Shown one piece after another: positions 6,695-64,000 of a stretch of 64,000 nucleotides of DNA; within the stretch, counting starts at the first letter, position 1, and the number at the start of each line of letters is the position of its first letter. Position numbers and translations under genes: made by a program. The stretch is taken from assembly GCF_036960155.1 (NCBI RefSeq), contig NZ_JBALWB010000006.1:17472-81471 (forward strand), written 5' to 3'. Source of the DNA: Sulfitobacter sp. (GTDB lineage: Bacteria; Pseudomonadota; Alphaproteobacteria; Rhodobacterales; Rhodobacteraceae). The notes beneath the pieces were generated by a model. It saw only the letters and a program-made list of their open reading frames with translations. It made no database searches and had not been told where the DNA came from.

Positions 6695-7663
6695 ATGCCT
6701 AATATGTCCCGCCGTCTCGCAATGGTCACATCCGCGCCCATGATAGCGCTTGCCGCTTTTGGTAGCGGCGTAATGCCCGCCAGTGCTGATGAGGCTTGGG
6801 CCTCTGAGAAGAAGTTTGTCGAAGTCTTCGGACAAAAGATGGCCTACATTGAGCGCGGCGAAGGTAAACCTATCGTGTTCGTGCATGGTAACCCGACGTC
6901 TTCTTACCTGTGGCGCAATGTCATCCCTCATGTTGAAGGTCACGGTCGGATCATCGTTATGGACCACATGGGCATGGGCGATAGCGATAAACTGCCAGCA
7001 TCCGTTGAAGGCAGGTATCGGCTCGTCACCCAAGCAAAATATTTTGCTGAATTCATGCGTCAGATCGATGCACAGCAGGACGTGACGTTGGTACTGCATG
7101 ACTGGGGCGGGGCAGTTGGCTTTGATTGGGCACTTCACAATCATGGCAGTCTGCGCGGTATCGCCTATATGGAGACCTTCGTAAAACCGCTAGAATGGGA
7201 AGACCTCCCCGAGGATTTTCACCCAACCTTGAAAGCTGTGCGCTCAGACGAAGGTGAACAACTAGTTCTCGAAGAGAACATGTTTATTGAAGGCATGTTA
7301 CCAGGTGTCACTGGCCGTCCTTTGACTGAAGAAGAAATGACTGAGTATCGCCGCCCATATCTGAACGCTGGTGATGACCGTCTGGCGACTTTGCAATGGG
7401 CGCGTGAGGTCCCGATCGGTGGTTCACCTGCTGATGTTGCTGAACGGATCGGTAATTACTCAGCATGGTTAGAAACCAGCGAAGTGCCAATGCTGTTTGT
7501 TGATGCAGAACCCGGCGTTTTCATCACTGGAAATACACGTGCCTTTGCACGCAGCTTGCCAAATCAGACAATTGCCGAAGCCAAAGGCCTGCATTTCATG
7601 CAGGAAGATGATCCTGACACCATCGGTGCCGCTGTATCGTCCTTCGTCTCGGGTCTCGAGTAA
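6695..7663 (+). CDS. Haloalkane dehalogenase (HLD-II, LinB/DhaA-like) with N-terminal signal peptide
   Basis: HGNPTSSYLWRN, LHDWGG nucleophile, YMETFV acid, GLHFMQED base; leader MPNMSRRLAM...ASA. Confidence 0.9.
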   Translation: MPNMSRRLAMVTSAPMIALAAFGSGVMPASADEAWASEKKFVEVFGQKMAYIERGEGKPIVFVHGNPTSSYLWRNVIPHVEGHGRIIVMDHMGMGDSDKLPASVEGRYRLVTQAKYFAEFMRQIDAQQDVTLVLHDWGGAVGFDWALHNHGSLRGIAYMETFVKPLEWEDLPEDFHPTLKAVRSDEGEQLVLEENMFIEGMLPGVTGRPLTEEEMTEYRRPYLNAGDDRLATLQWAREVPIGGSPADVAERIGNYSAWLETSEVPMLFVDAEPGVFITGNTRAFARSLPNQTIAEAKGLHFMQEDDPDTIGAAVSSFVSGLE

Positions 7664-8946: not shown

Positions 8947-10612
8947 AGACCGTGTGAAAACTCAGACCAGTGGCCGAAGCTCTGCCTGTAGCCTCGGATT
9001 TCCCATTCTTGCTACACTCGCACCGGACGGAGGCCCAAAGGCCACCTTTGAACGGTTTCAGGCAATCTAAAAGCAGTTTTTGCGGGGGGATTGGCCCTAT
9101 TCCGCCAAAATTTGCTGGGTGCGGCGATCAAACCCTTCACACCCACCTGATTCAACGCACGTCGGATGTTGTAAGCGAGCGCGGTCAGACCGAACTCGCC
9201 GCGAACGTTTTCTAAACGACGCATCAGGCACGCACTCTGGTTCATGGATTGCTTGATCGTACCAAAGGGATGTTCAACGGTGTTGCGCCGTTGGGTCAGT
9301 ATTTCTGGATTTTCTCGGAGCCGCTTTGCTATCGGTTCAAGAACCGCGTCCCCTTCATTTCGCGTCACTGTTCGGTAAGTACCCTTGGTGCATTTTGATA
9401 GCCTCGGGCATCCTGCGCAGGCTTTAACATCGCAATAGTCCAGTTTGACGTTCGTGCGCACAAGTGAGCGTCGTCCAAGCATCAGTTCTTTCCCTCAGGG
9501 CAGACCTAAACGTCTTTTCGGGATCGTAGGTAAATTCTTCTCTTCAGATAAGACCCGCTGCCACGGCTGAGCCGCGCAGAGGTTTGGGGACATACGCCTC
9601 AATTCCTCGAGCGTCGCATTCTGTGATGTCCTCAATCTGGAAGTAGCCCTTGTCGGCAACGGCCTTGATCTCTGTGACACCCAAGTTCTGCATTGTCGCT
9701 GCCGTTGTCTCGGCGAGAAAGCCATAGTCAAGAACCCGGTTGTGAACCTGTTGTTCAGCGATCAATTTGTGTTTGGTATCGACGGCAATCTGAATGTTGT
9801 AGCCCACACCAACCTTCGTCATGCGTGCCATGGCTCTGCTATCGGGATCTGTCTGTGATATTTGAGTTTCGCCGCTGTGCTCCAGGGTTTGAAGATGTGC
9901 GATCAAACGGTCTCGCTTGCCTTTGATCGCGTCGATCTTACCCCGTAGATCGCCCAACTTAGGGCTGCCAGTTGTGATGCTGTCTGCGCAATCTGTCTGA
10001 TCCAGTTCGTTCAGGTATCGTTCAAGACGTTCGTCACTTTGCAGGATGTGCTTTGCCAAAGATCTTTGGCAAAGTTGCGGTTCTTGTTGTTCACAGCCTT
10101 GATCCGGGTTCCATCAACTGCAAGAAGTTTGCGACCGTACAGGTTAAGCTCCCGACACAAAACAACAAACTGGCGGAAGACTTTTCGAAAGGCGGCGCGG
10201 TTTATCCGTCGAAAGTCAGCGATTGTTTTGAAGTCTGGCTTGAGCTGGCGCATCACCAAATGACTTCGATGTTGCGATAGGTTTCCACTTCAAGGTGTCA
10301 ACTTGGGCGAACCCGGTTCAAATAACCATAGATGTAGAGCTTCAGCAGATCCTTTGATCATATCCAGGCCGACCTGTCGATTTTGGGTGCGCGCGTTGGA
10401 AACCAAAATGAGAAATATCTGGGCCATCTGCAAAGGCTTCTATGAACCGGGCTGGGTTTTCCGGACCGACATAGTCATCCACAGTCTCGGGCAAAAGCAG
10501 AAGCTGGGATCGCGATATTTCTGAAATATGTGACATAGGAAAGTGTACCACCAAGGCGGAATTCTGTGAATCCCCGATGCACCCTAAAACTCAAGAAGTT
10601 TTCTGACAGTCT
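8947..10612 (-). mobile_element. IS1182-family element with fragmented transposase
   Basis: Fragments MSHISEISRSQLLLLPETVDDYVGPENPARFI (ATG 10536), MRQLKPDFKTIADFRR, LAVDGTRIKA, VADKGY, RRNTVEHPFGTIK across several frames; imperfect ends agaccgtgtgaaaact / agactgtcagaaaact. Confidence 0.85.
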
Positions 10613-51148: not shown

Positions 51149-52963
51149 ATGTCAATAAAACCACCCTTTACCGCGTTGGAGATCGAAAAGGCTCCATCCG
51201 GTTTCTACGAAGGCTACAGCCTTCCTATCGCGCTTATCAGCAAGGCCATCATGGCTGCACTGGTAATCTGGGCCTTGATCTGGCCAGGAAACGCAAGCAG
51301 CGTTCTTTCTGCTGTGAACGGAACTTTACTGAATGTTTTCAACAGCTTTTACATAATTTCCGTAGGGCTTTTTGCCTTTTTCCTTTTTGTTCTAGCCTTG
51401 TTGCCTGCAACAGGAAGCAAGAAATTAGGCACAGCAGACACGAAGCCTGAGTTTTCCAATTTCTCTTGGTTTTCCATGATGTTTGGTGCCGGTCTTGGCG
51501 TCGGATTGATGGTTTTTGCGACCGCAGAGCCCTTAGGCTTGTGGGGGTCAAATCCGTTGATCTTGTCAGGTGAAGTCGCGGCAAATTCCGAAGAAGCAGT
51601 CAAATCAGCATATCGCTATACCTTCCTTCACTACGGCTTTCATGCATGGGCAATCTATGTTCTGACTGGCCTGTCATTAGCATATTATGCCTACACACGC
51701 GAAATGCCGTTGACGATACGATCCGCGCTTACGCCGCTTTTGGGCAAAGCTGCGAACGGTCCCATCGGGCATTTGGTTGACGTACTTGGCGTTGTTGCAA
51801 CAATCCTTGGTGTTTCCGTTACGATTGGTTTCGGTGTGAGCCAGTTTGTGGATGGTGTTTACGCGGTCACAGGCATGGAATGGTTGATGAACGGCGATGC
51901 AGACGCACCAAAGCCAAGCACAGTTGGTTTGATTTCGGCACTGATTGTCATCATGGCTTTGTCCATCTTGTCAGCGGTTTCAGGTGTTGGACGTGGCATC
52001 AAATATCTGTCGAACCTTAACTTGGTTCTGTCAGTTATTCTGCTTTTGACTTTCGTCTTCTTTGGCTCGTTCTTCTTTGCGATGACCAAATTTGGTGCGG
52101 GTTTGGTAGATTACATTCTGCATTTTGTTCAAATGTCATTTGGTGCCTACGCGCCGCAATCCGCTGATGCATTTGCAGCGGCAATTCCAGAGGCCGCAAA
52201 TGCACTACCCGCAGAAGATATCAGCACGATCTATGGTGCTGCGACGTCACCTTGGGGATCACTTGCAGGGTTCACCGAAGGTTTGCCCTCATCTGCAGCT
52301 GAGCTAGACGCAGCAGCTCTTTATGCAGCGGGTGAGCAAGGTCGTCAGTTTGGATGGCAGTCGGGCTGGACCACGTTTTATTGGGCTTGGTGGATCGCGT
52401 TTTCACCTTTCGTCGGCTTGTTTTTGGCGCGCATCTCCAAAGGCCGAACTGTACGTGAATTCATCTTTGGTTGCGTTATCGCACCTGCGATTGTTTGCTT
52501 CTTGTGGATGACTATCCTTGGCGGCACAGCGATTGATTTGGAACTTAACGGTGGTGCTGCTGGTTCGTTGATTGGCGCTACAAACACAGCGAAATTATTT
52601 GCGACACTTGAGCAGATGATTTCTGGCGGCTTTCTATCAGCGATTACGATCATGTGTGTTGTTCTGATCATGACGTTCCTTGTCACATCTGCAGACTCTG
52701 GCATCTTGGTTATGAACACCATCATGTCTGGTGGTGAGCAAGAAACTGGTATCAAACACCGTATTATCTGGGGGTTGATCCTCACGGCGGTGATTGGCAC
52801 GTTGATCATTGCAGGCAATAGCGGTGCCGCGGCGAACCCGTTCGGCGCGTTGCAAAACGCGATGATCATCGGTGCACTGCCGTTCACAATTGTGATGGTG
52901 TTCATGATGATTTCGCTCACCAAAGCGCTTTACCGCGATAGCGTTCGGGCCAAGCAAGACTAG
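51149..52963 (+). CDS. BCCT (betaine/carnitine/choline) transporter
   Basis: SWFSMMFGAGLGVG, FLHYGFHAWAIY, FYWAWWIAFSPFVG, VTSADS. Confidence 0.95.
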   Translation: MSIKPPFTALEIEKAPSGFYEGYSLPIALISKAIMAALVIWALIWPGNASSVLSAVNGTLLNVFNSFYIISVGLFAFFLFVLALLPATGSKKLGTADTKPEFSNFSWFSMMFGAGLGVGLMVFATAEPLGLWGSNPLILSGEVAANSEEAVKSAYRYTFLHYGFHAWAIYVLTGLSLAYYAYTREMPLTIRSALTPLLGKAANGPIGHLVDVLGVVATILGVSVTIGFGVSQFVDGVYAVTGMEWLMNGDADAPKPSTVGLISALIVIMALSILSAVSGVGRGIKYLSNLNLVLSVILLLTFVFFGSFFFAMTKFGAGLVDYILHFVQMSFGAYAPQSADAFAAAIPEAANALPAEDISTIYGAATSPWGSLAGFTEGLPSSAAELDAAALYAAGEQGRQFGWQSGWTTFYWAWWIAFSPFVGLFLARISKGRTVREFIFGCVIAPAIVCFLWMTILGGTAIDLELNGGAAGSLIGATNTAKLFATLEQMISGGFLSAITIMCVVLIMTFLVTSADSGILVMNTIMSGGEQETGIKHRIIWGLILTAVIGTLIIAGNSGAAANPFGALQNAMIIGALPFTIVMVFMMISLTKALYRDSVRAKQD

Positions 52964-53066: not shown

Positions 53067-53970
53067 GGCTCTGTCGCAAAACTGTGTCGATTGGGTGAGA
53101 CGGCTAGACCATGTTAGATGCGGAGCTTTGTTCTTGAAGGTGAGCGCCCAACCGTGATGATTGATTTCCAAGGGGATCACTTCCCCAAAAGCGTGATCCT
53201 TTTTGCCATATTTTTCTACGTGCGTTACGGCGTCTCGTATAGAGACTTGGAAGAAATTATGGCTGAACGTGGTGTTGAAATCGATCATGTCACGCTGAAC
53301 CGTTGGGTGGTGAAGTTCTCACCGCTGATCGCTGAAAATGCCAAGGCAAGAAAGAAGCAAACCGCCTCTTCATGGCGAAAGCCCTCTCGGGATATTACTG
53401 CGCAATACCCTGTCAGGTGACAGATGAAACCTATGTCAAAGTTCGCGGAAAATAGGTCTACCTGTATCGCGCAGTCGATCGCGGCGGACAAACCCTTGAT
53501 TTCATGATGTCAGAGCGCCGCGATACCGCTGCTGCGCGGCGATTTTCAAACGGGCAGTTGGCACAAACGGTATCCCAGATCGTATTGCCATCGACAAAAG
53601 TCGAGCCAATTTGGCTGGCCTGCAAAACTTAAATGTCATCCTCAAATTCACGGGAGGAGGGCGGATCATCGAAATCGTTCAATCCAAATATCTCAACAAC
53701 TGCATGGCAGGGTAAACTTGTTTGCCGGAGAATGAACATCGTCGAACAGGATCACAGGTTTATCAAACGGATTACACGGCCAGTGCTCGGCTTCAAAGCG
53801 TTCCATTCTGCGGCTGCAACATTGGCTGGGATCAAAGCCGCGCATATGAACCGCAAGGGTCAATTAGCCGATACAGGTATCCCAGCGTTCAGGCAGTTTG
53901 CCACGCTCGAAGCATAATTGCGTCCGCAGAAGACCGTTCGTCAATAGAATGAAAAGTTTGCGACAGAGCC
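53067..53970 (+). mobile_element. IS6-family element, defective (copy 2, 904 bp, inverted relative to copy 1)
   Basis: Ends ggctctgtcgcaaaact / agtttgcgacagagcc; remnant YRDLEEIMAERG, DETYVKV, YLYRAVD, IVEQDHR. Confidence 0.92.
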
Positions 53971-54230: not shown

Positions 54231-54887
54231 CTATAATGCAGCCAACTGAAGATCGCACCCATCGGTAATATGGTCGTGCATGGCGCGTTGTGCGTGATCA
54301 AACCCACCGGACAGAATTTTGTCCAAAAGATCCATATGGCCGGTCAATGATTCTTGCAATCTCGGGGTGTCCAGTTTTTCGAAACTTTGGATCGCGATTG
54401 CCCTATTCCAGTTTGTGTCGAAGGCCTCCAACAGAAATGTGTTGCCAGATGTAGCGACAAAGGCATGGTGTATCGTTCGATTGGCCTCAAAGTATGCGGC
54501 ATTTGTCTGTGGTGTCTTGCTTTCCTCTAGAGCAATTGTCGCGCGTAGTGTTTTGATATCCTCAGCGGTTCCTAAATCCGCCAGAAGGCCAGCACAAAAC
54601 CCTTCTACGGCTTTGCGGGCCTGATAGATGTCGCGCACTTCAGATTTCGTGACACGACGAATTTCAAATCCACCGTTCACTGATGACCGCAGCACGCCTT
54701 CCTGTTCCAGCCGCAACAAGGCTTCGCGGACAGGTGTTCGGCTAACGTCCAGCATCTGGGCAAGTTTAACTTGATGGAGCCGCTCGTTCGGATTGATTGC
54801 ACCCGATTGAAGCCCACCGACGATTTGGTCGTAAACCAGATCAGCCAACCGTGGACGGATTGCGGTTACTTTTTGTAGGCCTTGCAT
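54231..54887 (-). CDS. GntR (FCD) regulator
   Basis: LAQMLDVSRTPVREALLRLEQEG; FCD domain. Confidence 0.95.
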   Translation of the reverse strand: MQGLQKVTAIRPRLADLVYDQIVGGLQSGAINPNERLHQVKLAQMLDVSRTPVREALLRLEQEGVLRSSVNGGFEIRRVTKSEVRDIYQARKAVEGFCAGLLADLGTAEDIKTLRATIALEESKTPQTNAAYFEANRTIHHAFVATSGNTFLLEAFDTNWNRAIAIQSFEKLDTPRLQESLTGHMDLLDKILSGGFDHAQRAMHDHITDGCDLQLAAL

Positions 54888-54910
54888 GTTTTACCTTTGG
54901 TCGAGGTTGT

Positions 54911-55615
54911 TCAGCCCTCTATATCAAGGGATTGATGTTTTAAGAAGGACTTGATTTGTTCAACCACCGCTGGCGACGGAGATCTATGCATTAAGCGTGT
55001 GTGTGCTTCGGAAACGCGTTCAGCAGGGACGCTGGCGCGGCGCAGTTCGATCAGATCCGAGATCAAGCTGTTGTCAAATTCTGGGTGAGCCTGAACGGAA
55101 TATCCGATCTTTCCATAAGAAATCGCGGCGTGTTCGCAAAACGACGACTGGCCAACAGTTTTTGCGCCTTCAGGCAGTTCTGTGACTTGATCCTGATGCC
55201 AAGCATTAATTGTTACAGGTGTCTCTATCCCGTCAAATTTATAGTCGTGGGGACCAAGACCCCAGCCTTTGTCAGATTTCTCTACTTTTCCGCCTAGGGC
55301 TTGCGCCATGATCTGGTGGCCGAAGCAGACACCTACCATTGGAATTTGCGCGTCTTTGGCCGCACAGATTAGGTCTTCGAGCTGGGCAATCCATGGTAAG
55401 TCTTCATAGGCTGAAAACGCGGAGCCGGTGATCAACCACGCGTCACATTCCGTCACGCTGGCGGGAAATACGTCTTCAAGAACCGCATAGCTTTGAAACG
55501 TAAACGCGTCATCGGCGAGCAATCTGACAAACAGATCATCCATTTCGCCGTGGTTTTCATTAATCTGGGGCAGGGTTTTCCCTGTGCGTAAGATACCAAT
55601 CTTCATCTTGTTCAC
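54911..55615 (-). CDS. Class I glutamine amidotransferase-like hydrolase
   Basis: GVCFGHQ nucleophile; QAHPEF. Confidence 0.92.
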   Translation of the reverse strand: MNKMKIGILRTGKTLPQINENHGEMDDLFVRLLADDAFTFQSYAVLEDVFPASVTECDAWLITGSAFSAYEDLPWIAQLEDLICAAKDAQIPMVGVCFGHQIMAQALGGKVEKSDKGWGLGPHDYKFDGIETPVTINAWHQDQVTELPEGAKTVGQSSFCEHAAISYGKIGYSVQAHPEFDNSLISDLIELRRASVPAERVSEAHTRLMHRSPSPAVVEQIKSFLKHQSLDIEG

Positions 55616-56706
55616 TCCATTCCAAAGTCAATAATTGTACGGATACCGATGCCGCGATCCATGTCCGCAAAGCCCTCGTTTATCCGAGCAAGCGGTAAGC
55701 GCGCTGTCAGCATGTCATCAAGGTTGAGCCGCCCATCCATATAGAGGCGTGCAAGCCGCGGCATGTCGGTGCGAAACTGGTTTGATCCCATGTCGCAGCC
55801 CATGACCTTTCGTTCGGCAATGAAGTGGCCAAAGGGCAGGGCGACATCTTCGTCGAGGCCCATCAGGCCGATCATCACCGTGGTTCCGCCTTTGCGCGTG
55901 CTTAAGAAACATTGCTTGACCAGCGCGGGATTGCCCACCGCGTCAAATGCGGCCTCAACGCCTTTGCCATCTGTGACGGCGCGAATTGCCTCCACTGGAT
56001 CGGTCTCCTTGGGATTGACCGTGTGGGTCGCACCAAGGGTTGTCGCCATCGCCAGCCGCTCAGGGTTCAGGTCGACTGCGACGATAATTGTTGCCCCTGC
56101 CAACCGGGCGGCCTGTACCGTTGATAGACCGACTGCGCCGCAGCCAAACACCGCGACGGTTTCACCCGCGCGAATTTGCGCCGTCCGCGTGACCGCACCC
56201 CATCCCGTCATCACGCCACATCCAATCAGCGCCGCACGGTCCAATGGCATCGCGCTGTCGATCTTTGTGAGGGCATGCTCATGGACAAGTATTTCTTCGG
56301 CAAAGCCGGAAAGGTTCATGAATTGCGACACAGGTTTCCCCGCAAGGCTGATGCGAGGTGGTTCATCCTCATGGCGGTGCAATGTATCGCCACCTTCGCA
56401 GATGGATGGGCGGCCAGACAGGCACATCTCGCAGCAGCCGCAAAATGCAGACAGGCAGCCGATCACGTGATCGCCGGGTTTGAGGTAACTCACACCAGCC
56501 CCAACCGCACGCACGATGCCAGCCGTCTCATGCCCGAGAACCGCAGGAGCCATTATTGGCAGGTGGCCGCGCATAAAATGCAGGTCGGTGTGGCATAAGC
56601 CAGTGGCATGAACTTCTACCCGTACCTCGTGATGGCCGGGATTGCCCAATTCGATATTTTCGATAACCAGATCGGAGCCGTATTCGTGTAAAATCGCAGC
56701 TTTCAT
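55612..56706 (-). CDS. Zn-dependent alcohol dehydrogenase (class III-like MDR)
   Basis: GLCHTD, GHE, CGCCEMC..C structural Zn, GCGVMTG, GCGAVG. Confidence 0.95.
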   Translation of the reverse strand: MKAAILHEYGSDLVIENIELGNPGHHEVRVEVHATGLCHTDLHFMRGHLPIMAPAVLGHETAGIVRAVGAGVSYLKPGDHVIGCLSAFCGCCEMCLSGRPSICEGGDTLHRHEDEPPRISLAGKPVSQFMNLSGFAEEILVHEHALTKIDSAMPLDRAALIGCGVMTGWGAVTRTAQIRAGETVAVFGCGAVGLSTVQAARLAGATIIVAVDLNPERLAMATTLGATHTVNPKETDPVEAIRAVTDGKGVEAAFDAVGNPALVKQCFLSTRKGGTTVMIGLMGLDEDVALPFGHFIAERKVMGCDMGSNQFRTDMPRLARLYMDGRLNLDDMLTARLPLARINEGFADMDRGIGIRTIIDFGME

Positions 56707-56722
56707 GTCTTTTTCCTAATCC

Positions 56723-57520
56723 TCATAAACCATGGTCGAGGAAGAACCGTAGGCGCGCGGTAACCGGCGCGTGGTTTTCCAAGTTCACGATATGGCCTGC
56801 GTTCGGGATGATTGTTGCGCTTGCCCCGGGGATCATTTGGGCGATGGCATAGGCGTAGGCCGGGGGGGTTTCCGCGTCTTGGGCACCCGCCATAGCAAGT
56901 GTGGGGCAGGTGATGTTTGCCAGCTTGTCCACGGCGTCGTGATCAGCAATCAACCGTGTTGTTAGGGCCAATCCGTTGGCGCGCGCGCGCGACATGGAAG
57001 TAATTGCCTCGACCTTTATTTCTTCAGGGCAGTCTGGACTGACAATCGCGCGGATCATACCGTCCGAAAACTTGGCAGGGCTGGTGCCACTGTTGAGATC
57101 CGCAAGGATTGAGTCTGCAAATGCAATTGGATCAACATCGCCGCCATATCCGAACTTAGGCGAGCTATCTAGAATCGCCGCACTGTCTACTAGATCTGGG
57201 TGGGTTGCCGCGAAGTGCTGCAAAATCATGCCACCTACTGAGAGTCCGATAAAGTGCGCCGACTGCAGCCCTAAAGTGTCCGTGATGAATTTTCTTAAGG
57301 TCTCGACGGTCCAATCCATGTCCGCACCTTCGGGCGCGTCGTCCGAGCCGCCAAAGCCGGGCATATCCCACGCAACGCAGCGGTAACTATCAGAAAAGAT
57401 ATCCATTTGTGGGGCCCACGCCGTCGCAGAGCCCGCCATCGCATGTAGGAAAACAAGCGCAGGGTTTGCGGCATTTCCCGCCTCTATCCATGCAATCTGG
57501 GCGTTCTTGTTTTTAGGCAT
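56723..57520 (-). CDS. Alpha/beta hydrolase
   Basis: GLSVGG, AGAQD, AGHIVNLE. Confidence 0.92.
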   Translation of the reverse strand: MPKNKNAQIAWIEAGNAANPALVFLHAMAGSATAWAPQMDIFSDSYRCVAWDMPGFGGSDDAPEGADMDWTVETLRKFITDTLGLQSAHFIGLSVGGMILQHFAATHPDLVDSAAILDSSPKFGYGGDVDPIAFADSILADLNSGTSPAKFSDGMIRAIVSPDCPEEIKVEAITSMSRARANGLALTTRLIADHDAVDKLANITCPTLAMAGAQDAETPPAYAYAIAQMIPGASATIIPNAGHIVNLENHAPVTARLRFFLDHGL

Positions 57521-57550
57521 ATTGGTCGATCCTCAAAAAATACTTGCTTG

Positions 57551-57566
57551 TGTATTCATGAATACA
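57551..57566. promoter_or_regulatory. Perfect 16-bp palindrome, candidate GntR-FCD operator of the divergent P450 locus
   Basis: tgtattcatgaataca. Confidence 0.7.
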
Positions 57567-57631
57567 GTATGCACGATCCAATCGCAACTGTCATGGAATG
57601 GCAGGCGCAAACCACGACAGGAGAGACCTTA

Positions 57632-58894
57632 ATGAAACCGCAACTCGCTGCAGACCTTTCTGAACAAGGCCTTTTCGATCACGGAATCCCACAGGATATT
57701 TTCAAGAAGCTGCGCGAGATGGATGGTTTGGCGTGGAACCCTCTTCCGAGCGAGGGACCGGATGCTGGTTTTTGGTCTGTAGGTCGGTTTGATGATGTTG
57801 TGGCCGTCAGTCGCGACACTGAGACATTCTCGTCTGCGACGGGCCATATCCAAATGTACAACATTGACGACGACGCACTCACTGCGCGGGCTTCGATGAT
57901 TGACATGGATCCGCCCGATCATAGCCGACTGCGGCGTCTAGTGAACCCCGGGTTCATTCCGAAAGTGATACGCACCTACGCTGATATTGTGCGTGATCGT
58001 GTCTCCGTTTTGCTGGATGAAATGTTGGGCGATGGCGGTGGTGACTGGGTTAGTAAAGTTTCCAAACCCATCCCGATTGGTATCATCTGCGATATGCTGG
58101 GCGTGCCAGAAGCAGACCGCGATTTGATGATCGAGATGACGGATTATCTGGTGGCGGGCACCTCTGCCGAACCGCTTGACCCTAATGCTTATGGAAACAC
58201 GACGCCTCTGCGTCTTTTACCGTTCAACAGCCCAGCAGCCTATGGATTGAGTGAATACGCACGCAAGCTTGGTGATGAGCGTCGCGCCAATCCGCGCGAT
58301 GATCTGATTAGCCAGTTGGTCACGCATGAGATCGATGGTGAGCAACTATCGGATGAGGAATACACCAACTTTTTCCGGCTGTTGATTTTTGCGGGCAATG
58401 AAACAACACGGACAGCAATGTCACATATGGCATTACAGCTTGCACAGTATCCTGAGCAATTTGCCCGCCTCAAGGCTGAGCCGGAGCTTATTGATACTGC
58501 TGTTGAGGAGATCGTCCGCTTCTCATCACCCATCATGTATTTCCGGCGTACAGCCACGAAAGATACCGAGCTTAGTGGCACCAAGGTAGCTGCAGGGGAC
58601 CGTGTCGTCATGTGGTACGCCAGTGCTAACTTTGACGAGAACCGTTTTGACGATGCGCAGTCTTTCGACATCGCCCGTTCCAAAATGCCAATCCATGCTG
58701 GTTATGGCGGAGGCGGTGTACATACCTGCCTTGGCGCAGGTCTTGCGCGGATCGAGTTGAAGGTGTTGCTTGAGGAAATTCTTGCGCGTGACATCAAGAT
58801 CGAAATCGACGGTGACCCTGAGTATGTGAATACGAATTTCGTCAATGGCATCGAGGTTCTGAACGTGAAGATGTCTCAGGGAACCGGCGCATGA
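57632..58894 (+). CDS. Cytochrome P450
   Basis: I-helix FAGNETT, EEIVR (ExxR), heme motif GYGGGGVHTCLG; start MKPQLAAD. Confidence 0.97.
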   Translation: MKPQLAADLSEQGLFDHGIPQDIFKKLREMDGLAWNPLPSEGPDAGFWSVGRFDDVVAVSRDTETFSSATGHIQMYNIDDDALTARASMIDMDPPDHSRLRRLVNPGFIPKVIRTYADIVRDRVSVLLDEMLGDGGGDWVSKVSKPIPIGIICDMLGVPEADRDLMIEMTDYLVAGTSAEPLDPNAYGNTTPLRLLPFNSPAAYGLSEYARKLGDERRANPRDDLISQLVTHEIDGEQLSDEEYTNFFRLLIFAGNETTRTAMSHMALQLAQYPEQFARLKAEPELIDTAVEEIVRFSSPIMYFRRTATKDTELSGTKVAAGDRVVMWYASANFDENRFDDAQSFDIARSKMPIHAGYGGGGVHTCLGAGLARIELKVLLEEILARDIKIEIDGDPEYVNTNFVNGIEVLNVKMSQGTGA

Positions 58895-59940
58895 GTGACC
58901 GTTTCACCACATTTGATGTACGCGAAGTCGTCAAAGAGTCTGAGATTATCACGTCGTTCTATCTTGAACCGCGCACTCCGCTTGCCCGCGAATTTGTGCC
59001 GGGTGAGTACCTGATCTTTGAACATCGCCCTGAAAACGGGGAACCCATACGCCGCGAGTATTCCATTTCTGGAACGCGCGATGATGAAATCCGCGTGACG
59101 ATCAAGCGCGAATTGGCACCTGAGCAAGGGTTGCAAGATGGCATTATGTCGACCCGTTTTCATGATGCAACGATGGCAGGTGATACCGTTAAGGCTGCGG
59201 GGCCAATGGGTGCCTTTACGCTTGATCGGGATGCGGATCGGCCAGTGGTGCTATTAAGTGGCGGCGTCGGGCTAACGCCAGTTGTGGCTATGGCACATGA
59301 ACTGGCAGGGACTGCACGCGAAACCGTATTTATACATGCTTGTGAAAACGGGCAGGTTCACGCGCTTGGCCAAGAGATGCGCGAGCTGGCAACTGCGCAT
59401 GAGAATTTCTCAACTCATGTGCTGTACCGCACGCCAATAGATAGGGATCAGCTGGGTCGCGATTATGACACCGCTGGCATGATCACCCAAGATCTGCTGG
59501 AAAAATTGACCCCCGGCAAAGACGTTGATTTCTATCTGTGTGGTCCTGGCCCGTTCATGGCGGCGATGTATGACACGCTTTTGGCAATGGATGTTGATCC
59601 TGACAGGATTTCATATGAATTTTTCGGGCCTGCGACTGTGTTGAGGCCTAAAAAGAAGACAGTCGCGAAACCCACCGCATCTGATGCTCCAGTGATTACC
59701 TTTGCCAAATCTGGCGTCGAAGCGGCGTGGAATCCGGCAGAAGAAAACCTACTGGAGTTTGCCGAGGAAAACGGCGTCATGGTCGACTACAGCTGTCGGG
59801 CAGGAACCTGTGTGACCTGCATGACGAAGGTCATAAAAGGATCCGTCAGCTACTCAGTTGATCCATTTGAACAACCCAAAGACGGGTACGCATTGCTGTG
59901 CTGTTGTGTGCCTGATGGTGATTTGGAGCTGGACGTATGA
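58891..59940 (+). CDS. FAD/NAD(P)H reductase with C-terminal 2Fe-2S domain (PDR-like), P450 partner
   Basis: RREYS, SGGVGLTP, YLCGP, YEFFGP, CRAGTCVTC..LLCC. Confidence 0.93.
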   Translation: MSDRFTTFDVREVVKESEIITSFYLEPRTPLAREFVPGEYLIFEHRPENGEPIRREYSISGTRDDEIRVTIKRELAPEQGLQDGIMSTRFHDATMAGDTVKAAGPMGAFTLDRDADRPVVLLSGGVGLTPVVAMAHELAGTARETVFIHACENGQVHALGQEMRELATAHENFSTHVLYRTPIDRDQLGRDYDTAGMITQDLLEKLTPGKDVDFYLCGPGPFMAAMYDTLLAMDVDPDRISYEFFGPATVLRPKKKTVAKPTASDAPVITFAKSGVEAAWNPAEENLLEFAEENGVMVDYSCRAGTCVTCMTKVIKGSVSYSVDPFEQPKDGYALLCCCVPDGDLELDV

Positions 59941-61118
59941 TGGGTGCATTGGACGGCTTGCGGATTTTGGATTTGAGCCGAATTTTGGCTGGACCAACCG
60001 CCACCCAATTATTGGGTGATTTTGGCGCAGACATCATCAAGGTCGAGCGGCCTGGATTGGGTGATGACACCCGCGCATGGGGTCCTCCCTTTGTTGAAGG
60101 CGGCGATGGCCCGACCCAAGAAAGTGCGTATTATCTGTGTGCTAACCGAAATAAGCGATCTATCGCGGTGGATATTGCGAAGCCTGAGGGCGCTCAAACG
60201 GTGCGTGAATTGCTGGCCACCTGTGATGTGTTGGTTGAGAATTTCAAACCTGGCGGGTTGGATAAATACGGGTTGTCCTACAGCGATTTGAAAGAACAGT
60301 TTCCACGACTGGTCTATTGCTCGATTTCGGGTTTTGGACAGACCGGACCAAACAGCGAAAAACCGGGCTATGATTTGCTTGCACAGGCTTATGGCGGCAT
60401 CATGAGCCTGACAGGAGAACCGGAAGGCGAACCGATGAAGGTTGCCGTTGGTATCGCCGATGTCATGACTGGGATGTATGCGTCCAACGCCATTCTGGCG
60501 GCCTTGCGCCACCGTGATAAAATGGATGAGGGTCAGCATATTGATATCGCATTGGTCGATTGTCAGATTGCGTGGCTTATCAACGAAGGTACCAATTATC
60601 TGACGTCTAAAATCCTACCCCAGCGGCGCGGAAATCAGCACCCCAATATCGTGCCATATCAAGTCTTTGAAATGGCTGATGGTCATGCCGTGGTTGCCGT
60701 CGGAAATGACGCACAGTTCGAACGGTTCTGTACTTTGATCCGTCGCGAAGAACTGGCGAGTGACCCGAAGTACGTTACAAATGCAGGCCGTCTCGTAAAC
60801 CGTGAGGCGTTGATCGCGACATTAACCGAAACATTGTCCAAATTGGAACGCGACTGGCTGATCTCGGGGATGGAAGCCAACAAGATCCCCGGCGGACCAA
60901 TCAATCAACTGGATGATGTGTTTGCCAGTGATCAAGTTGCTGCCCGCGAAATGAAAATCACCATGCCCCATAGCGGGGCAGCATCAGGTGAGGTCGATCT
61001 AATCGGCAATCCTGTGAAATTCTCAAAAACCCCGGTCACCTATCGGCGCGCGCCGCCGACCTGTGGTGCCGACACTGATGATATCTTGGCTGAACTTGCA
61101 GCCACGCAAAAGGAATAA
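59937..61118 (+). CDS. CaiB/BaiF family III CoA-transferase (possibly Act-like)
   Basis: DLSRILAGP, GDDTRAWGPP, ENFKPG, GYDLLAQA, IADVMTG. Confidence 0.93.
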   Translation: MMGALDGLRILDLSRILAGPTATQLLGDFGADIIKVERPGLGDDTRAWGPPFVEGGDGPTQESAYYLCANRNKRSIAVDIAKPEGAQTVRELLATCDVLVENFKPGGLDKYGLSYSDLKEQFPRLVYCSISGFGQTGPNSEKPGYDLLAQAYGGIMSLTGEPEGEPMKVAVGIADVMTGMYASNAILAALRHRDKMDEGQHIDIALVDCQIAWLINEGTNYLTSKILPQRRGNQHPNIVPYQVFEMADGHAVVAVGNDAQFERFCTLIRREELASDPKYVTNAGRLVNREALIATLTETLSKLERDWLISGMEANKIPGGPINQLDDVFASDQVAAREMKITMPHSGAASGEVDLIGNPVKFSKTPVTYRRAPPTCGADTDDILAELAATQKE

Positions 61119-61122
61119 CACC

Positions 61123-62316
61123 ATGCTTTTTCTGACAGACAGCCAACGCGACATCCAAGCCCGCGCAAAGGCGCTTTCTGACGGTTACGTCAAAGACATG
61201 GCCGCCGAAATTGACCGGACCGAACAGTACCCGTGGGAGACCACCAAGAAGTTGGCCGAAGCTGGCTTTATGGGGATGTCGATCCCTAAAGAATTCGGTG
61301 GGCAGGGCGCTAGTTATCTGGACGTGGTTCTGGTGATTGAACAAATGGCGCGCAACTGTGGCGTAACAGCCCGTATCGTTGTTGAGGCAAACATGGGCGG
61401 CATCGGCGCGATCATGGCCTATGGCAGCCAAGAACAAAAAGAGCTGTGTGCGCCCTATGTGCTGGCCGGGGACAAGCCAGCAATTTGTATCACTGAACCG
61501 AATGCGGGATCAGCAGCAACAGAAATGACAACCACGGCCGAAAAGGTCGATGGTGGCTACAAAATCAACGGTGTGAAGCATTGGATCACCGGCGGTGGTG
61601 TCTCCAAGGTCCATCTGATTTTTGCGCGCGTAGTTGAGAACGGTGAATTCCTCGGCATAGGCGGGTTCATTGCGATCCGCGATGAAGACGAAGGTTTGCG
61701 CGTAGGTAAGCGCGAACCGGCGATGGGTCTGCGCGCGATCCCCGAGACGCATCTGCACTTTGAGAATCTTTTTGTTGCCGACAACCGTGCGGTGCAATTT
61801 CCGCAAGGCTATCGCAAAGGATTTGCAGCACTCATGAACGCCTACAATGCGCAACGTGTAGGCGCGGCGACTGTCGCGCATGGTATCGCACAGGGTGCGT
61901 TTGAGCGTGCGGTGGAATTTGCCAAGGAACGCGAACAGTTCGGTCGCCCGATTGCGGAATTCCAAGGCTTGCAATGGATGATGTCGGACATGTCCACTGG
62001 CCTCGCTGCGGCGCAGGCGTTGATCTATAAGGCGGCGATGGCCGAGGAAGGCCAATTCCCGAACATGCAAGAAGCGGCGCAGGCAAAAATCTTTGCTGCT
62101 GAAAATGCCATCAAAGTGACGGACAGTGCGATGCAAATTCACGGTGCTATGGGGTATTCGCGTAATCTGCCAATGGAGCGGATGTACCGCGATGCGCGTA
62201 TGTTCACGATAGGTGGCGGCACGGCGCAAATGTTGCGCAATCAAGTCGCAAGCTCACTGCTTGAGATGAAATTGCCCCAAACCCGTGCGGGCCATCTAAA
62301 ACTCGCAGCGGAGTAA
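61123..62316 (+). CDS. acd: Acyl-CoA-dehydrogenase-fold protein resembling 3-sulfinopropionyl-CoA desulfinase
   Basis: TEQYPW, ARIVV, GDKPAICITEPNAGSAA, WITGGGVSK, IPETHL, YNAQRVG, TIGGGTAQ, MKLPQTR; both usual catalytic Glu positions are replaced (Q and G). Confidence 0.8.
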   Translation: MLFLTDSQRDIQARAKALSDGYVKDMAAEIDRTEQYPWETTKKLAEAGFMGMSIPKEFGGQGASYLDVVLVIEQMARNCGVTARIVVEANMGGIGAIMAYGSQEQKELCAPYVLAGDKPAICITEPNAGSAATEMTTTAEKVDGGYKINGVKHWITGGGVSKVHLIFARVVENGEFLGIGGFIAIRDEDEGLRVGKREPAMGLRAIPETHLHFENLFVADNRAVQFPQGYRKGFAALMNAYNAQRVGAATVAHGIAQGAFERAVEFAKEREQFGRPIAEFQGLQWMMSDMSTGLAAAQALIYKAAMAEEGQFPNMQEAAQAKIFAAENAIKVTDSAMQIHGAMGYSRNLPMERMYRDARMFTIGGGTAQMLRNQVASSLLEMKLPQTRAGHLKLAAE

Positions 62317-62319
62317 CCC

Positions 62320-63636
62320 ATGGATAAGCTCGACCGTTTCGGCGCTCAGGTGTCGCACAAGGATCAATTGGACATAGATGTCTTTGGGGAAGCGGCCGAG
62401 CTGATGCTAGGGTATGCGCCTGATCCCGTTGGTATGATAAATACGTTGCTGGAAAAGTCGCCTGATTTCATTATGGCGCGGTGTTTTCTGGCAGGTATTT
62501 TTCTGACCGCCAGCGACAAGCGTCGCCAGCCGTTAATGCACAAGCACTACGATATTCTGGCGACACAAGCGGAGCATGCAAATGAGCGTGAAAAAGGTCA
62601 TATTCACGCGCTTAAACTATGGTCTGGGGGCAATCTTTATGCTGCTAGCCAAGCGTATGCAGATATTCTGAACACGTGTCCGCGCGACATCGTGGCCTTG
62701 CAGCTAGGGCATCAGACGGACTTTTTGTTGGGCCACGCATCGTCGACCCGTGACAGGCCTACCCGCGTGTTGGGCCATTGGTCCAAAACTGACCCGCAGT
62801 ACTCCTACATTCTAGGAATGCAGGCTTTTGGGTTGGAAGAAGCAGGTCACTATTCGGCTGCACAATCCATGGCCGAACGCTGTGTAGGCATGAACGAGAA
62901 AGATACGTGGGGCGTTCACGCGCTGGCGCATTGTCTTGAAATGCAGGGCAAGGTCGATGAGGGCGTTGATTTCATGACCCGGTGCGAGGACCGCTGGGGG
63001 AATGATACCTATATGTCGATCCATAATCGCTGGCATCTGGGGCTGTATTATCTGGAACGCTGCGAGTTCGACACTGCGCTTGCAATGCATGACGCGCATA
63101 TGGCGGTCACGCCAAAGTCCGAGCTGATGGACATGCACGATTCCGCCGCCCTTTTGTGGCGATTGCAGATGGACGGCGTGGATGTGGGAGATCGTTGGAA
63201 CGTGGTCGCGGATAATTACGCGTGTGTCATTGATCAGGCCTACATGTCGTTCACAGATCTACACGCGATGATGTCTTTTGCTGCGACGGGTCGCGATAAA
63301 GAAGCCAAAGCGCAGATTGCGGTTTTGGAAAATGCAGCAACTGCCAATACCGACACGGGAACAATTATCCAGCAGGCAGGCTTGCCGCTGGTCCGCGGGT
63401 TTGAGGCCTTTGGTCGGGGGGATTATGCGGCCGCCAAACGTCACATTGGCAACGCGCGCCACAATAGTCACCTGATGGGCGGATCCATCGCACAGCGCGA
63501 CGTGATCAACTGGACCTTAATCGAAGCCGCAATTCGCGACGGTGACACGCCTATGGCAAATGCGCTGTTGGCGGAACGCACGTTGATGAAACCACATTCA
63601 CCTTTGACGGATATGTTTGCCCGCAAAGCAGCCTGA
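62320..63636 (+). CDS. TTC38-like tetratricopeptide repeat protein
   Basis: GMQAFGLEEAG, WGVHALAH, HNRWH, DSAALLWRL, GGSIAQRD. Confidence 0.85.
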   Translation: MDKLDRFGAQVSHKDQLDIDVFGEAAELMLGYAPDPVGMINTLLEKSPDFIMARCFLAGIFLTASDKRRQPLMHKHYDILATQAEHANEREKGHIHALKLWSGGNLYAASQAYADILNTCPRDIVALQLGHQTDFLLGHASSTRDRPTRVLGHWSKTDPQYSYILGMQAFGLEEAGHYSAAQSMAERCVGMNEKDTWGVHALAHCLEMQGKVDEGVDFMTRCEDRWGNDTYMSIHNRWHLGLYYLERCEFDTALAMHDAHMAVTPKSELMDMHDSAALLWRLQMDGVDVGDRWNVVADNYACVIDQAYMSFTDLHAMMSFAATGRDKEAKAQIAVLENAATANTDTGTIIQQAGLPLVRGFEAFGRGDYAAAKRHIGNARHNSHLMGGSIAQRDVINWTLIEAAIRDGDTPMANALLAERTLMKPHSPLTDMFARKAA

Positions 63637-63669
63637 TCCGCATCTTTTTTGCCTTGGGAGGGGCTTGGG

Positions 63670-64000
63670 ATGACACAAAATAAGAACACCGATTTGCTTG
63701 AGCGTCGTGGGGCTGCGATTTCAAATGGAGTCGGTCTGATGCATCCTGTTTTTGCACGACGTGCCGAGAATTCGGAAATTTGGGATGCTGACGGCAAACG
63801 GTTCATCGACTTTGCAGCAGGTATTGCGGTTACCAACTGTGGTCATAGGCATCCATCTATTGTGGCTGCTGTAACTGAACAATTGGGGGCATTTACGCAT
63901 ACCTGCCAGCACGTGACCCCGTACGAAAACATGATCCAGCTGGCGGAGCGGTTGAATGAAATTGTTCCCGGTGATGGCCCAATGAAATCGGCATTTTTCA
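63670..64000 (+). CDS. gabT: Class III aminotransferase, 4-aminobutyrate aminotransferase-like (runs off the window)
   Basis: ENSEIWDADGKRFIDFAAGIAVTNCGHRHP..FTHTC..PYEN..LAERL. Confidence 0.85.
   Translation, partial: MTQNKNTDLLERRGAAISNGVGLMHPVFARRAENSEIWDADGKRFIDFAAGIAVTNCGHRHPSIVAAVTEQLGAFTHTCQHVTPYENMIQLAERLNEIVPGDGPMKSAFF

Follow-up and report, generated by a model that had tools for sequence, protein, structure and literature searches.

A gene cluster in Sulfitobacter sp. that joins a cytochrome P450 to a desulfinase-type Acd: a possible GntR-controlled catabolic island for a small organosulfur amine

Organization of the locus

We analyzed a stretch of 64,000 nucleotides from Sulfitobacter sp. 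(the window; C25:17472-81471 of a 5.1-Mb genome), which ends in a gene cluster encoding a cytochrome P450 together with Acd, a protein of the 3-sulfinopropionyl-CoA desulfinase type. The cluster runs past the window end, and its continuation (L001, C25:81000-96000) is treated here as well. Proteins in the window were typed by Pfam domains and by NCBIfam models with curated cut-offs; their nearest named relatives are found in Octadecabacter temperatus, Sulfitobacter and other Rhodobacteraceae. Within the window the cluster comprises the following features.

54231-54887, minus strand: GntR-family regulator with an FCD effector domain (Pfam GntR and FCD)
54911-55615, minus strand: class-I glutamine amidotransferase (GATase)-like protein, proposed gamma-glutamyl-amide hydrolase (Pfam GATase, 63 bits)
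55612-56706, minus strand: Zn-dependent alcohol dehydrogenase (ADH), liver-ADH type (Pfam ADH_N and ADH_zinc_N)
56723-57520, minus strand: alpha/beta-fold hydrolase, PcaD/esterase-like (Pfam Abhydrolase_1)
57551-57566, no strand: perfect 16-bp palindrome TGTATTCATGAATACA, candidate GntR operator, in the divergent promoter region
57632-58894, plus strand: cytochrome P450, 420 aa, from the neighborhood of CYP124/CYP125 (Pfam p450)
58891-59940, plus strand: FNR-type P450 reductase with a C-terminal plant-type 2Fe-2S domain, in a PDR-like layout (Pfam FAD_binding_6, NAD_binding_1 and Fer2)
59937-61118, plus strand: family III CoA-transferase, Act-like (Pfam CoA_transf_3, 427 bits)
61123-62316, plus strand: Acd, 3-sulfinopropionyl-CoA desulfinase type (NF042439 above cut-off; four ACAD Pfam domains)
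62320-63636, plus strand: tetratricopeptide repeat (TPR)-like all-alpha protein (faint TPR Pfam matches only)
63649-64000, plus strand: 5' part of a GabT-type class III aminotransferase, the full gene running to window-equivalent position 64965

All genes named in the initial annotation of the window are present, and the GntR/FCD regulator, which it did not name, is additional to them. Past the window end the gene order is GabT, GabD, a Tat-signal solute-binding protein, PotABC-like ABC components, a two-component system, a BisC-like reductase, a glutamine synthetase (GS)-like protein, a carbon-nitrogen hydrolase and a membrane protein of the PF03601 (YeiH-type) family, which is annotated as putative sulfate exporters.

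Adjacent genes at the locus either overlap by 4 bp, as do the start of the reductase gene and the stop codon of the P450 gene, or are separated by gaps of 3-23 bp, and a 111-bp spacer parts the leftward from the rightward set; the genes therefore form two divergent operons. The spacer region holds the palindrome at position 57551 that the initial annotation had reported. Perfect 16-bp palindromes are not significant in themselves here, since the window contains three of them where about one is expected by chance; the other two are AGCAAAATATTTTGCT and GCCAAAGATCTTTGGC, at 7033-7048 and 10055-10070. The weight that we give to the palindrome at 57551-57566 comes only from its position in the promoter and from its conservation. 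Loci L003 and L014 contain an identical copy, and in loci L015, L017, L020 and L023 the half-site TGTAT[A/T]C stands 5' of the P450 gene; by taxon, it precedes the orthologous P450 gene in Octadecabacter, Maritalea, Cohaesibacteraceae, a metagenome-assembled genome (MAG) of Pseudomonadales, and Mycolicibacterium. The regulator contains both a GntR helix-turn-helix and an FCD domain, the promoter that it would control carries an inverted repeat of the GT...AC type, and orthologues of the regulator (42-82% identity) are encoded inside the same cluster in other taxa. Judged from these features, the GntR/FCD protein is likely a repressor of both divergent operons, and the palindrome with its conserved half-sites fits a candidate operator that has been conserved along with a co-inherited regulator.

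The cluster, its regulator and operator included, behaves like a mobile island. A fragment of a DDE (IS240-type) transposase gene (53633-53917) lies directly upstream of the cluster and is itself preceded by a gene for a BCCT-family transporter of the betaine/choline/dimethylsulfoniopropionate (DMSP) type (51149-52963). A close P450 orthologue (78% identity) occurs in just one of 36 congeners. The transposase fragment, the transporter before it and this patchy distribution in the genus suggest that the island was acquired horizontally.

Acd has the features of a 3-sulfinopropionyl-CoA desulfinase

Acd scores 655.6 bits with NF042439, the equivalog model of 3-sulfinopropanoyl-CoA desulfinase (cut-off 600), and among solved structures the enzyme of Advenella mimigardefordensis is by far its closest relative (5AF7/5AHS; E-value 1e-146, 59% identity). 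Residues R84, C122 and Q246 of the 5AF7 enzyme are kept in the alignment (Q246 being Q244 here); we take these three, Arg84, Cys122 and Gln246 of AcdDPN7, to be diagnostic of the desulfinase. Both catalytic-glutamate positions, in the motifs YNAQRV and IGGGTAQ noted in the initial annotation, are free of Glu and read Q and G. Loss of the catalytic glutamate is a trait of the desulfinase family (PMC9293079). The same state is found across the P450-linked homologues of Acd described below, in which R84, C122 and Q246 are present and the catalytic Glu is absent in 19 of 19. Alignment to AcdDPN7, which the initial annotation had suggested as a check, thus came out in favor of its assignment. Every sequence test that we ran supports Acd as a desulfinase-type enzyme, and release of sulfite is predicted for it. 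A glutaryl-CoA dehydrogenase was considered and rejected: Glu is lacking at either base position and the corresponding model, NF045552, gives 202 bits against a cut-off of 470. Without any catalytic glutamate, Acd should be unable to dehydrogenate glutaryl-CoA.

The gene for the family III CoA-transferase ends 4 bp before the start of Acd. Its top NCBIfam match is to succinate-glutarate CoA-transferase, at 477 bits and below the cut-off of 750; by family and position the protein is likened to Act, and we propose that it forms 3-sulfinopropionyl-CoA. A CoA-transferase directly upstream of a desulfinase-type Acd makes the pair recognizable as the known 3-sulfinopropionate module, as had been claimed for it from the start. 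In Variovorax and Advenella, Act or SucCD together with Acd is established to yield propionyl-CoA and sulfite (PMC6370202, PMC5373536). The module of Advenella mimigardefordensis DPN7 and Variovorax paradoxus TBEA6 (Act or SucCD, Acd/AcdA, Mdo) shares with our locus the family III CoA-transferase directly upstream of Acd and the same expected products, propionyl-CoA and sulfite. Those systems belong to thio- and dithio-dipropionate catabolism, are LysR-regulated and obtain the sulfinate from 3-mercaptopropionate via the cupin dioxygenase Mdo, whereas here there is no Mdo in the genome, the regulator is of the GntR/FCD type and the feeder genes are of amine type. Gene order differs as well, Act-Acd-Mdo in Advenella against Act-Acd-TPR here, so that the TPR-like gene stands in the position of Mdo.

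No gene of the CDO_I family (CDO/Mdo thiol dioxygenases) was found in this genome, and the sulfinate must therefore arise otherwise than by the known Mdo route. Of 201 genomes sampled evenly across the order, 23 encode Acd (27 Acd loci) and one encodes the CDO/Mdo family; the Mdo route would thus leave the 3-sulfinopropionate of most marine carriers of Acd unexplained.

Several Acd carriers of the order have Acd paired with a LysR regulator and a TAXI-TRAP transporter (L105, L106). The Sulfitobacter genome itself holds a second, P450-free module at C25:132247-138915 (L108:7248-13916), which encodes TPR2, Act2, a PF04199 cyclase-family protein and Acd2. Acd2 is 53% identical to Acd, lacks the catalytic Glu and, at 571.6 bits, falls just under the NF042439 cut-off; TPR2 is 26% identical to the first TPR-like protein. 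A gene for a thiamine pyrophosphate (TPP)-dependent enzyme lies about 0.6 kb downstream of Acd2; in Marimonas arenosa (L106), too, a TPP enzyme is encoded after Act-Acd.

Conservation of the P450-desulfinase linkage

Linkage of P450 and Acd was counted where an Acd of at least 55% identity was encoded within 10 kb, over distinct loci from other genomes. Orthologues of the P450 at 60-97% identity occur in very different bacteria. Where the P450 is at least 54% identical to ours, Acd lies within 10 kb at 15 of 20 loci, two of the five exceptions being truncated contigs; around more distant P450s it is linked in just 2 of 76 loci. The linked loci span Alpha- and Gammaproteobacteria, Mycolicibacterium and Acidimicrobiia. 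Among the 201 genomes of the order two carry a P450 orthologue, both within 8 kb of Acd. Taken together with the conservation of the diagnostic residues in 19 of 19 linked homologues, these counts (15/20 against 2/76, and 2/2 at the level of the order) lead us to conclude that the association of P450 and desulfinase is real, specific and conserved across phyla. A survey of this synteny had been called for in the initial annotation, which regarded a link of P450 and desulfinase as undescribed; none appears in the papers that we searched, which describe neither a P450 nor a GS-like pathway with a desulfinase attached. What we observed directly are the identities of the genes, the desulfinase-type features of the Acd sequence and the synteny across phyla; as a whole, the cluster combines two known kinds of pathway in a new way.

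The P450, its reductase, the GS-like protein, ADH, hydrolase, GntR regulator, Act, Acd and the TPR-like protein are encoded together in Octadecabacter temperatus, Maritalea porphyrae, Mycolicibacterium frederiksbergense, a Pseudomonadales MAG and Aminobacter sp., with GATase, GabT, an aldehyde dehydrogenase, an amine or amino-acid importer and sometimes PF03601 as variable companions. A second genus of Rhodobacterales (G106) has Act-Acd-TPR-PF03601-GabT-GabD on one strand, a layout shared by Maritalea, and beside these genes GATase-reductase-P450, hydrolase-ADH, GntR and GS-like genes. GATase stands next to P450 and reductase in Maritalea, the Pseudomonadales MAG, G106 and Octadecabacter. Many Acidimicrobiia MAGs carry a slimmer cluster (L021 type) in which P450, TPR and Acd are translationally coupled.

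The region is evidently mobile, given the insertion sequence-type transposase fragment upstream and the single congener out of 36 with a close P450 orthologue, and one might regard the arrangement as a chance juxtaposition or an annotation artefact with no functional unit behind it. The genes are, however, translationally coupled, and the same 12-14 genes recur with their regulator and operator half-site in Alpha- and Gammaproteobacteria and Actinomycetota. The synteny statistics come close to refuting this explanation, and we find it scarcely credible.

One locus of the acidobacterial Sulfotelmatobacter type, on a metagenome contig, encodes a fusion of hydrolase and P450 of 702 aa (L019:10001-12109) and, adjacent to it, a GS-like protein that is 67% identical to ours. 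Act and Acd are not found in this locus; instead it encodes two O-acetylhomoserine sulfhydrylases of the MetY type, an enzyme of the cystathionine gamma-lyase/synthase type and a CBS-type enzyme. Further genes there encode an omega-aminotransferase, an AhpD-like protein, a 2-oxoglutarate (2OG) oxygenase and a cupin whose Pfam match is DMSP-lyase-like. The locus resembles a form of this upper pathway adapted to sulfur scavenging. Its sulfur enzymes hint, independently of Acd, that the substrate of the P450 and the GS-like protein contains sulfur.

The same observations bear on the question of whether the two halves of the cluster belong to one route. They could be co-regulated and yet chemically independent, the lower genes handling imported homohypotaurine or 3-sulfinopropionate while the upper ones degrade another, possibly sulfur-free amine, whose product (e.g., gamma-aminobutyrate (GABA) or beta-alanine) shares GabT and GabD. 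Such independence would explain why Act and Acd are far more widespread (23 of 201 genomes) than the P450 (2 of 201), why TAXI-TRAP transporters and TPP enzymes, among others, are also found as their partners, and why clusters of GS-like and P450 genes without Acd are common in Streptomyces and others. It is hard to reconcile with a P450 lineage (at least 54% identity) that is almost never found without Acd, with the translational coupling of P450, TPR and Acd in the Acidimicrobiia clusters, and with the sulfur-amino-acid enzymes that surround the P450 unit where Acd is missing. On balance we consider two independent modules an unlikely account.

Proposed gamma-glutamylation logic of the upper genes

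The GS-like gene (L001:11930-13267) encodes a Gln-synt_C domain. Matches to GS type III and GlnA lie below their cut-offs, and the protein stays under every NCBIfam cut-off, the model of gamma-glutamylputrescine synthetase giving 205 bits against 650. For the GATase, the Peptidase_C26 match is weak and partial and NCBIfam cut-offs are not reached. A GS-like gene is also part of the cluster in Octadecabacter, Maritalea, Mycolicibacterium, the Pseudomonadales MAG, Aminobacter, G106, Acidimicrobiia and an acidobacterium; in related clusters its orthologues show 61-96% identity, with a class-I GATase alongside in most. Importers of amine type and a methyl-accepting chemotaxis protein (MCP) of amine chemoreceptor type accompany the cluster.

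The combination of a GS-like ligase, a class-I amidotransferase hydrolase and an oxygenase is the signature of amine catabolism by gamma-glutamylation, as in the Ipu and Puu pathways. By analogy, the cluster would mark a pathway of this type, in which glutamylation itself is what we infer from gene content. At the level of gene types, the likeness to Ipu of Pseudomonas sp. KIE171, Puu of E. coli and GlnA2/3/4 of Streptomyces extends to the GS-like ligase, the putative hydrolase of the class-I amidotransferase type, an oxygenase acting between them, ADH and/or aldehyde dehydrogenase, and an amine importer; Puu also exits via GabT and GabD, as here. Unlike the present cluster, the Ipu, Puu and GlnA2/3/4 pathways are not known to involve sulfur, a CoA-transferase or a desulfinase.

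The initial annotation had the P450 act on a free sulfone, sultam or carboxylate and gave the GATase no role. The organizing logic was missed because the cluster extends past the end of the window: the GATase would pair with the GS-like ligase encoded there, and the presence of both indicates that the P450 would act on a gamma-glutamyl amide rather than on any of these free compounds. Direct attack on a free methyl sulfone, cyclic sulfone or sultam (e.g., 3-methylsulfonylpropionate), with GATase and GS-like genes unrelated to it, does have a chemical basis; alpha-hydroxylation of a sulfone to a sulfinate and an aldehyde is established for SfnG, and the scheme accounts for Acd without an extra oxygenase. 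It leaves no role, however, for the GS-like and GATase genes that are conserved with the P450 lineage across phyla, nor for the amine-type importers and the amine chemoreceptor-type MCP, and we give it very little credence.

The aminotransferase gene, complete in the continuation (L001:121-1437), passes the cut-off of TIGR00700 (566 against 507 bits), and the gene next to it, encoding GabD of the succinate-semialdehyde type, passes that of TIGR01780. That GabT and GabD are bona fide GABA-pathway families would suit a sulfur-free route, in which a cyclic or alkyl amine (pyrrolidine, piperidine or pentylamine) is converted via GABA or 5-aminovalerate to succinate or glutarate, the CoA-transferase acting as succinyl-CoA:glutarate CoA-transferase and Acd being of the glutaryl-CoA type. 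Gamma-glutamylation together with a P450 is known in the degradation of secondary amines, and the top NCBIfam match of the CoA-transferase is, as noted, a succinate-glutarate CoA-transferase. This match nevertheless reaches only 477 of the 750 bits needed; Acd lacks the catalytic glutamate, passes the desulfinase equivalog and keeps R84/C122/Q246 at every linked locus; and a gene of the putative sulfate-exporter family PF03601 recurs in the operon. A cyclic or alkyl amine route thus appears quite improbable.

The cluster here and that of Octadecabacter also encode a soluble S-/N-oxide molybdoreductase of the BisC/TorA-like type, which was absent from the remaining clusters that we examined. 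The Sulfitobacter gene (L001:9631-11952; TIGR00509, 957 bits with a cut-off of 1018) adjoins the GS-like gene on its 5' side, and the Octadecabacter copy (L014:17380-19728) lies between GabT and the GS-like gene. The reductase hints at a sulfoxide feed in these Rhodobacterales clusters and may widen the substrate range to sulfoxides.

The P450 and its partners

The closest PDB matches of the P450 are an ancestral reconstruction of CYP125, CYP268A2 and CYP124. The heme-Cys motif GGGGxHxCLG and the I-helix motif AGNETT are invariant among the orthologues. The P450 is thus predicted to be intact, and its nearest solved relatives are hydroxylases of terminal methyl groups. The mycobacterial CYP124 and CYP125 act on sterols and methyl-branched lipids in a lipid-catabolic context, whereas the intact P450 described here is encoded in an amine and sulfur cluster; its lineage is conserved across phyla at an identity of at least 54% and has a fused-type reductase of its own. 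In proteins of 620-702 aa, for instance P0098 of Sulfotelmatobacter, the alpha/beta hydrolase is fused N-terminally to the orthologous P450, and these natural fusions tie the hydrolase functionally to the P450.

For the Zn-ADH, the class III model TIGR02818 gives 287 bits and its cut-off of 544 is not reached. Asp55 and Glu57 are substrate-binding residues of class III ADH; the motif that holds them (DPEG) is absent from our protein, which reads HLPI where class III has LDPEG in the alignment to 7AAS and 4L0Q. The ADH is thus not of the class III formaldehyde type. We had considered the ADH and the hydrolase as an FrmA/FrmB-like formaldehyde-detoxification pair acting on an S-hydroxymethyl intermediate; since the ADH failed both the class III cut-off and the motif, we keep this as a speculative option only.

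This genome (G000:C28:111150-112358) and several congeners encode a second P450 that is 36-38% identical to the first. In the congeners (L004-L009) its gene adjoins a different GS-like gene, together with a GATase in four of them. These clusters probably represent another gamma-glutamylation pathway for an amine, one without a desulfinase.

The TPR-like protein

The AlphaFold2 model of the TPR-like protein (pLDDT 94) is a solenoid of 23 helices. A fold search of this model against the PDB returned generic TPR superhelices alone, at TM scores of at most 0.5, and no enzyme fold. The family alignment has 55 invariant columns over 28 sequences, down to 39% identity, and includes seven invariant His residues, most of them about one repeat (35-40 residues) apart. 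Of the 201 genomes sampled from the order, 98 encode members of the family; the Sulfitobacter genome encodes five paralogues. A gene of the family lies within 4 kb of Acd at 8 of the 27 Acd loci of the order, the P450-free second module of this genome being one of the eight. The initial annotation had treated the protein as a bystander; it is in fact among the most tightly linked genes, close to Acd, and is part of the system. Whether it supplies or handles the sulfinate is a matter of hypothesis only.

Two distant TPR homologues, P0217 and P0227, have genomic contexts without relation to sulfur. Some distant members (P0227, P0235; L103) are fused to a GNAT N-acetyltransferase domain in proteins of about 649 aa, and a GNAT gene stands beside the TPR gene in the Pseudomonadales cluster (L020).

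Proposed pathway

Our preferred reading, to which we assign a probability of roughly 0.6, is that the cluster is a GntR-controlled catabolic island of two modules for a small organosulfur amine, ending in the release of sulfite. In the upper module, an amine-type transporter would import the amine and the GS-like ligase would attach it to the gamma-carboxyl of glutamate. The P450, served by its fused-type reductase, would then hydroxylate a C-H bond of the glutamylated amine, most likely at a terminal methyl group, the most economical target being the S-methyl of a compound of the 3-(methylthio/methylsulfinyl/methylsulfonyl)propylamine type. The alpha/beta hydrolase and the ADH would process the oxidized group, and the class-I amidotransferase-like hydrolase would cut off the glutamate, leaving a C3 amino-sulfinate of the homohypotaurine type. 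In the lower module, GabT and GabD would convert the amino-sulfinate via 3-sulfinopropanal to 3-sulfinopropionate, the family III CoA-transferase would form 3-sulfinopropionyl-CoA, and Acd would yield propionyl-CoA and sulfite; the PF03601 transporter may export a sulfur oxyanion.

The lower module is the better supported of the two, as judged by analogy, since each of its steps has experimental precedent elsewhere. Homohypotaurine is the sulfinate analogue of GABA. Commercial GABase, a mix of GabT and succinate-semialdehyde dehydrogenase (SSADH), quantitatively converts it to 3-sulfinopropionate in vitro (PMC11396700), a precedent that agrees with the role that the initial annotation had given to GabT on amines of this type. 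The GabT and GabD encoded here pass the cut-offs of the GABA-shunt families for which this oxidation is known (PMC11396700), and unlike those of the GABA shunt, they are encoded on the same strand as, and clustered with, desulfinase genes rather than genes of GABA uptake or succinate metabolism.

For the upper module we infer where the P450 attacks, which amine is involved and in what order the steps run, as we do the glutamylation. With a C3 amino-sulfinate as product and no Mdo-type dioxygenase, the simplest substrates would be S-methyl compounds of the methionine-decarboxylation series. A methyl sulfone, as its glutamyl amide, would yield the sulfinate directly and is a reasonable candidate.

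Several points weigh against this reading. The pathway is read from sequence, and the proposed substrate is a guess; to our knowledge, 3-(methylsulfonyl)propylamine is not an abundant natural product. A thioether or sulfoxide substrate would require further oxygenation, and for the thioether a thiol-to-sulfinate oxygenase is not among the genes identified. The BisC-like reductase, which fits a sulfoxide feed, sits awkwardly with a route that oxidizes sulfur up to the sulfone. The GS-like gene lies about 12 kb downstream of Acd, with transporter, two-component and molybdoenzyme genes in between. The part given to the hydrolase is putative, the TPR-like protein has no step assigned to it, and oxidation of a hemithioacetal or alpha-hydroxysulfone followed by formyl hydrolysis is left without specific support because the ADH fails the class III tests. 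Finally, the equivalog status of NF042439 is built on few characterized enzymes, all betaproteobacterial.

A bolder form of the proposal would have a methionine-derived amine (of the 3-methylthiopropylamine family, or its S-oxides) mineralized to sulfite in oceans and soils, with the P450 S-demethylating the glutamate-tagged substrate and the His-rich TPR-like protein acting as a non-cupin enzyme that makes or handles the sulfinate in place of Mdo. In this full form we hold the proposal to be doubtful.

Implications

Up to now, desulfination by Acd has been linked with thio-dipropionates, which are man-made, and with a thiol dioxygenase. Here it is wired to an amine-tagging P450 system that occurs in sea and soil and in several phyla, which points to a natural organosulfur amine with uncharted turnover. 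The proposal is directly testable because cultured carriers exist, among them Octadecabacter temperatus, Maritalea porphyrae, Aminobacter sp. and Mycolicibacterium frederiksbergense. If it is true, the cluster would add a sink in which reduced organic sulfur is converted to sulfite and propionyl-CoA, and it would give a physiological role to a P450 lineage that is now mis-annotated as cholesterol oxidase. It would also provide the first functional handle on a large uncharacterized family of TPR-like proteins, encoded by about half of the genomes that were sampled from the order.

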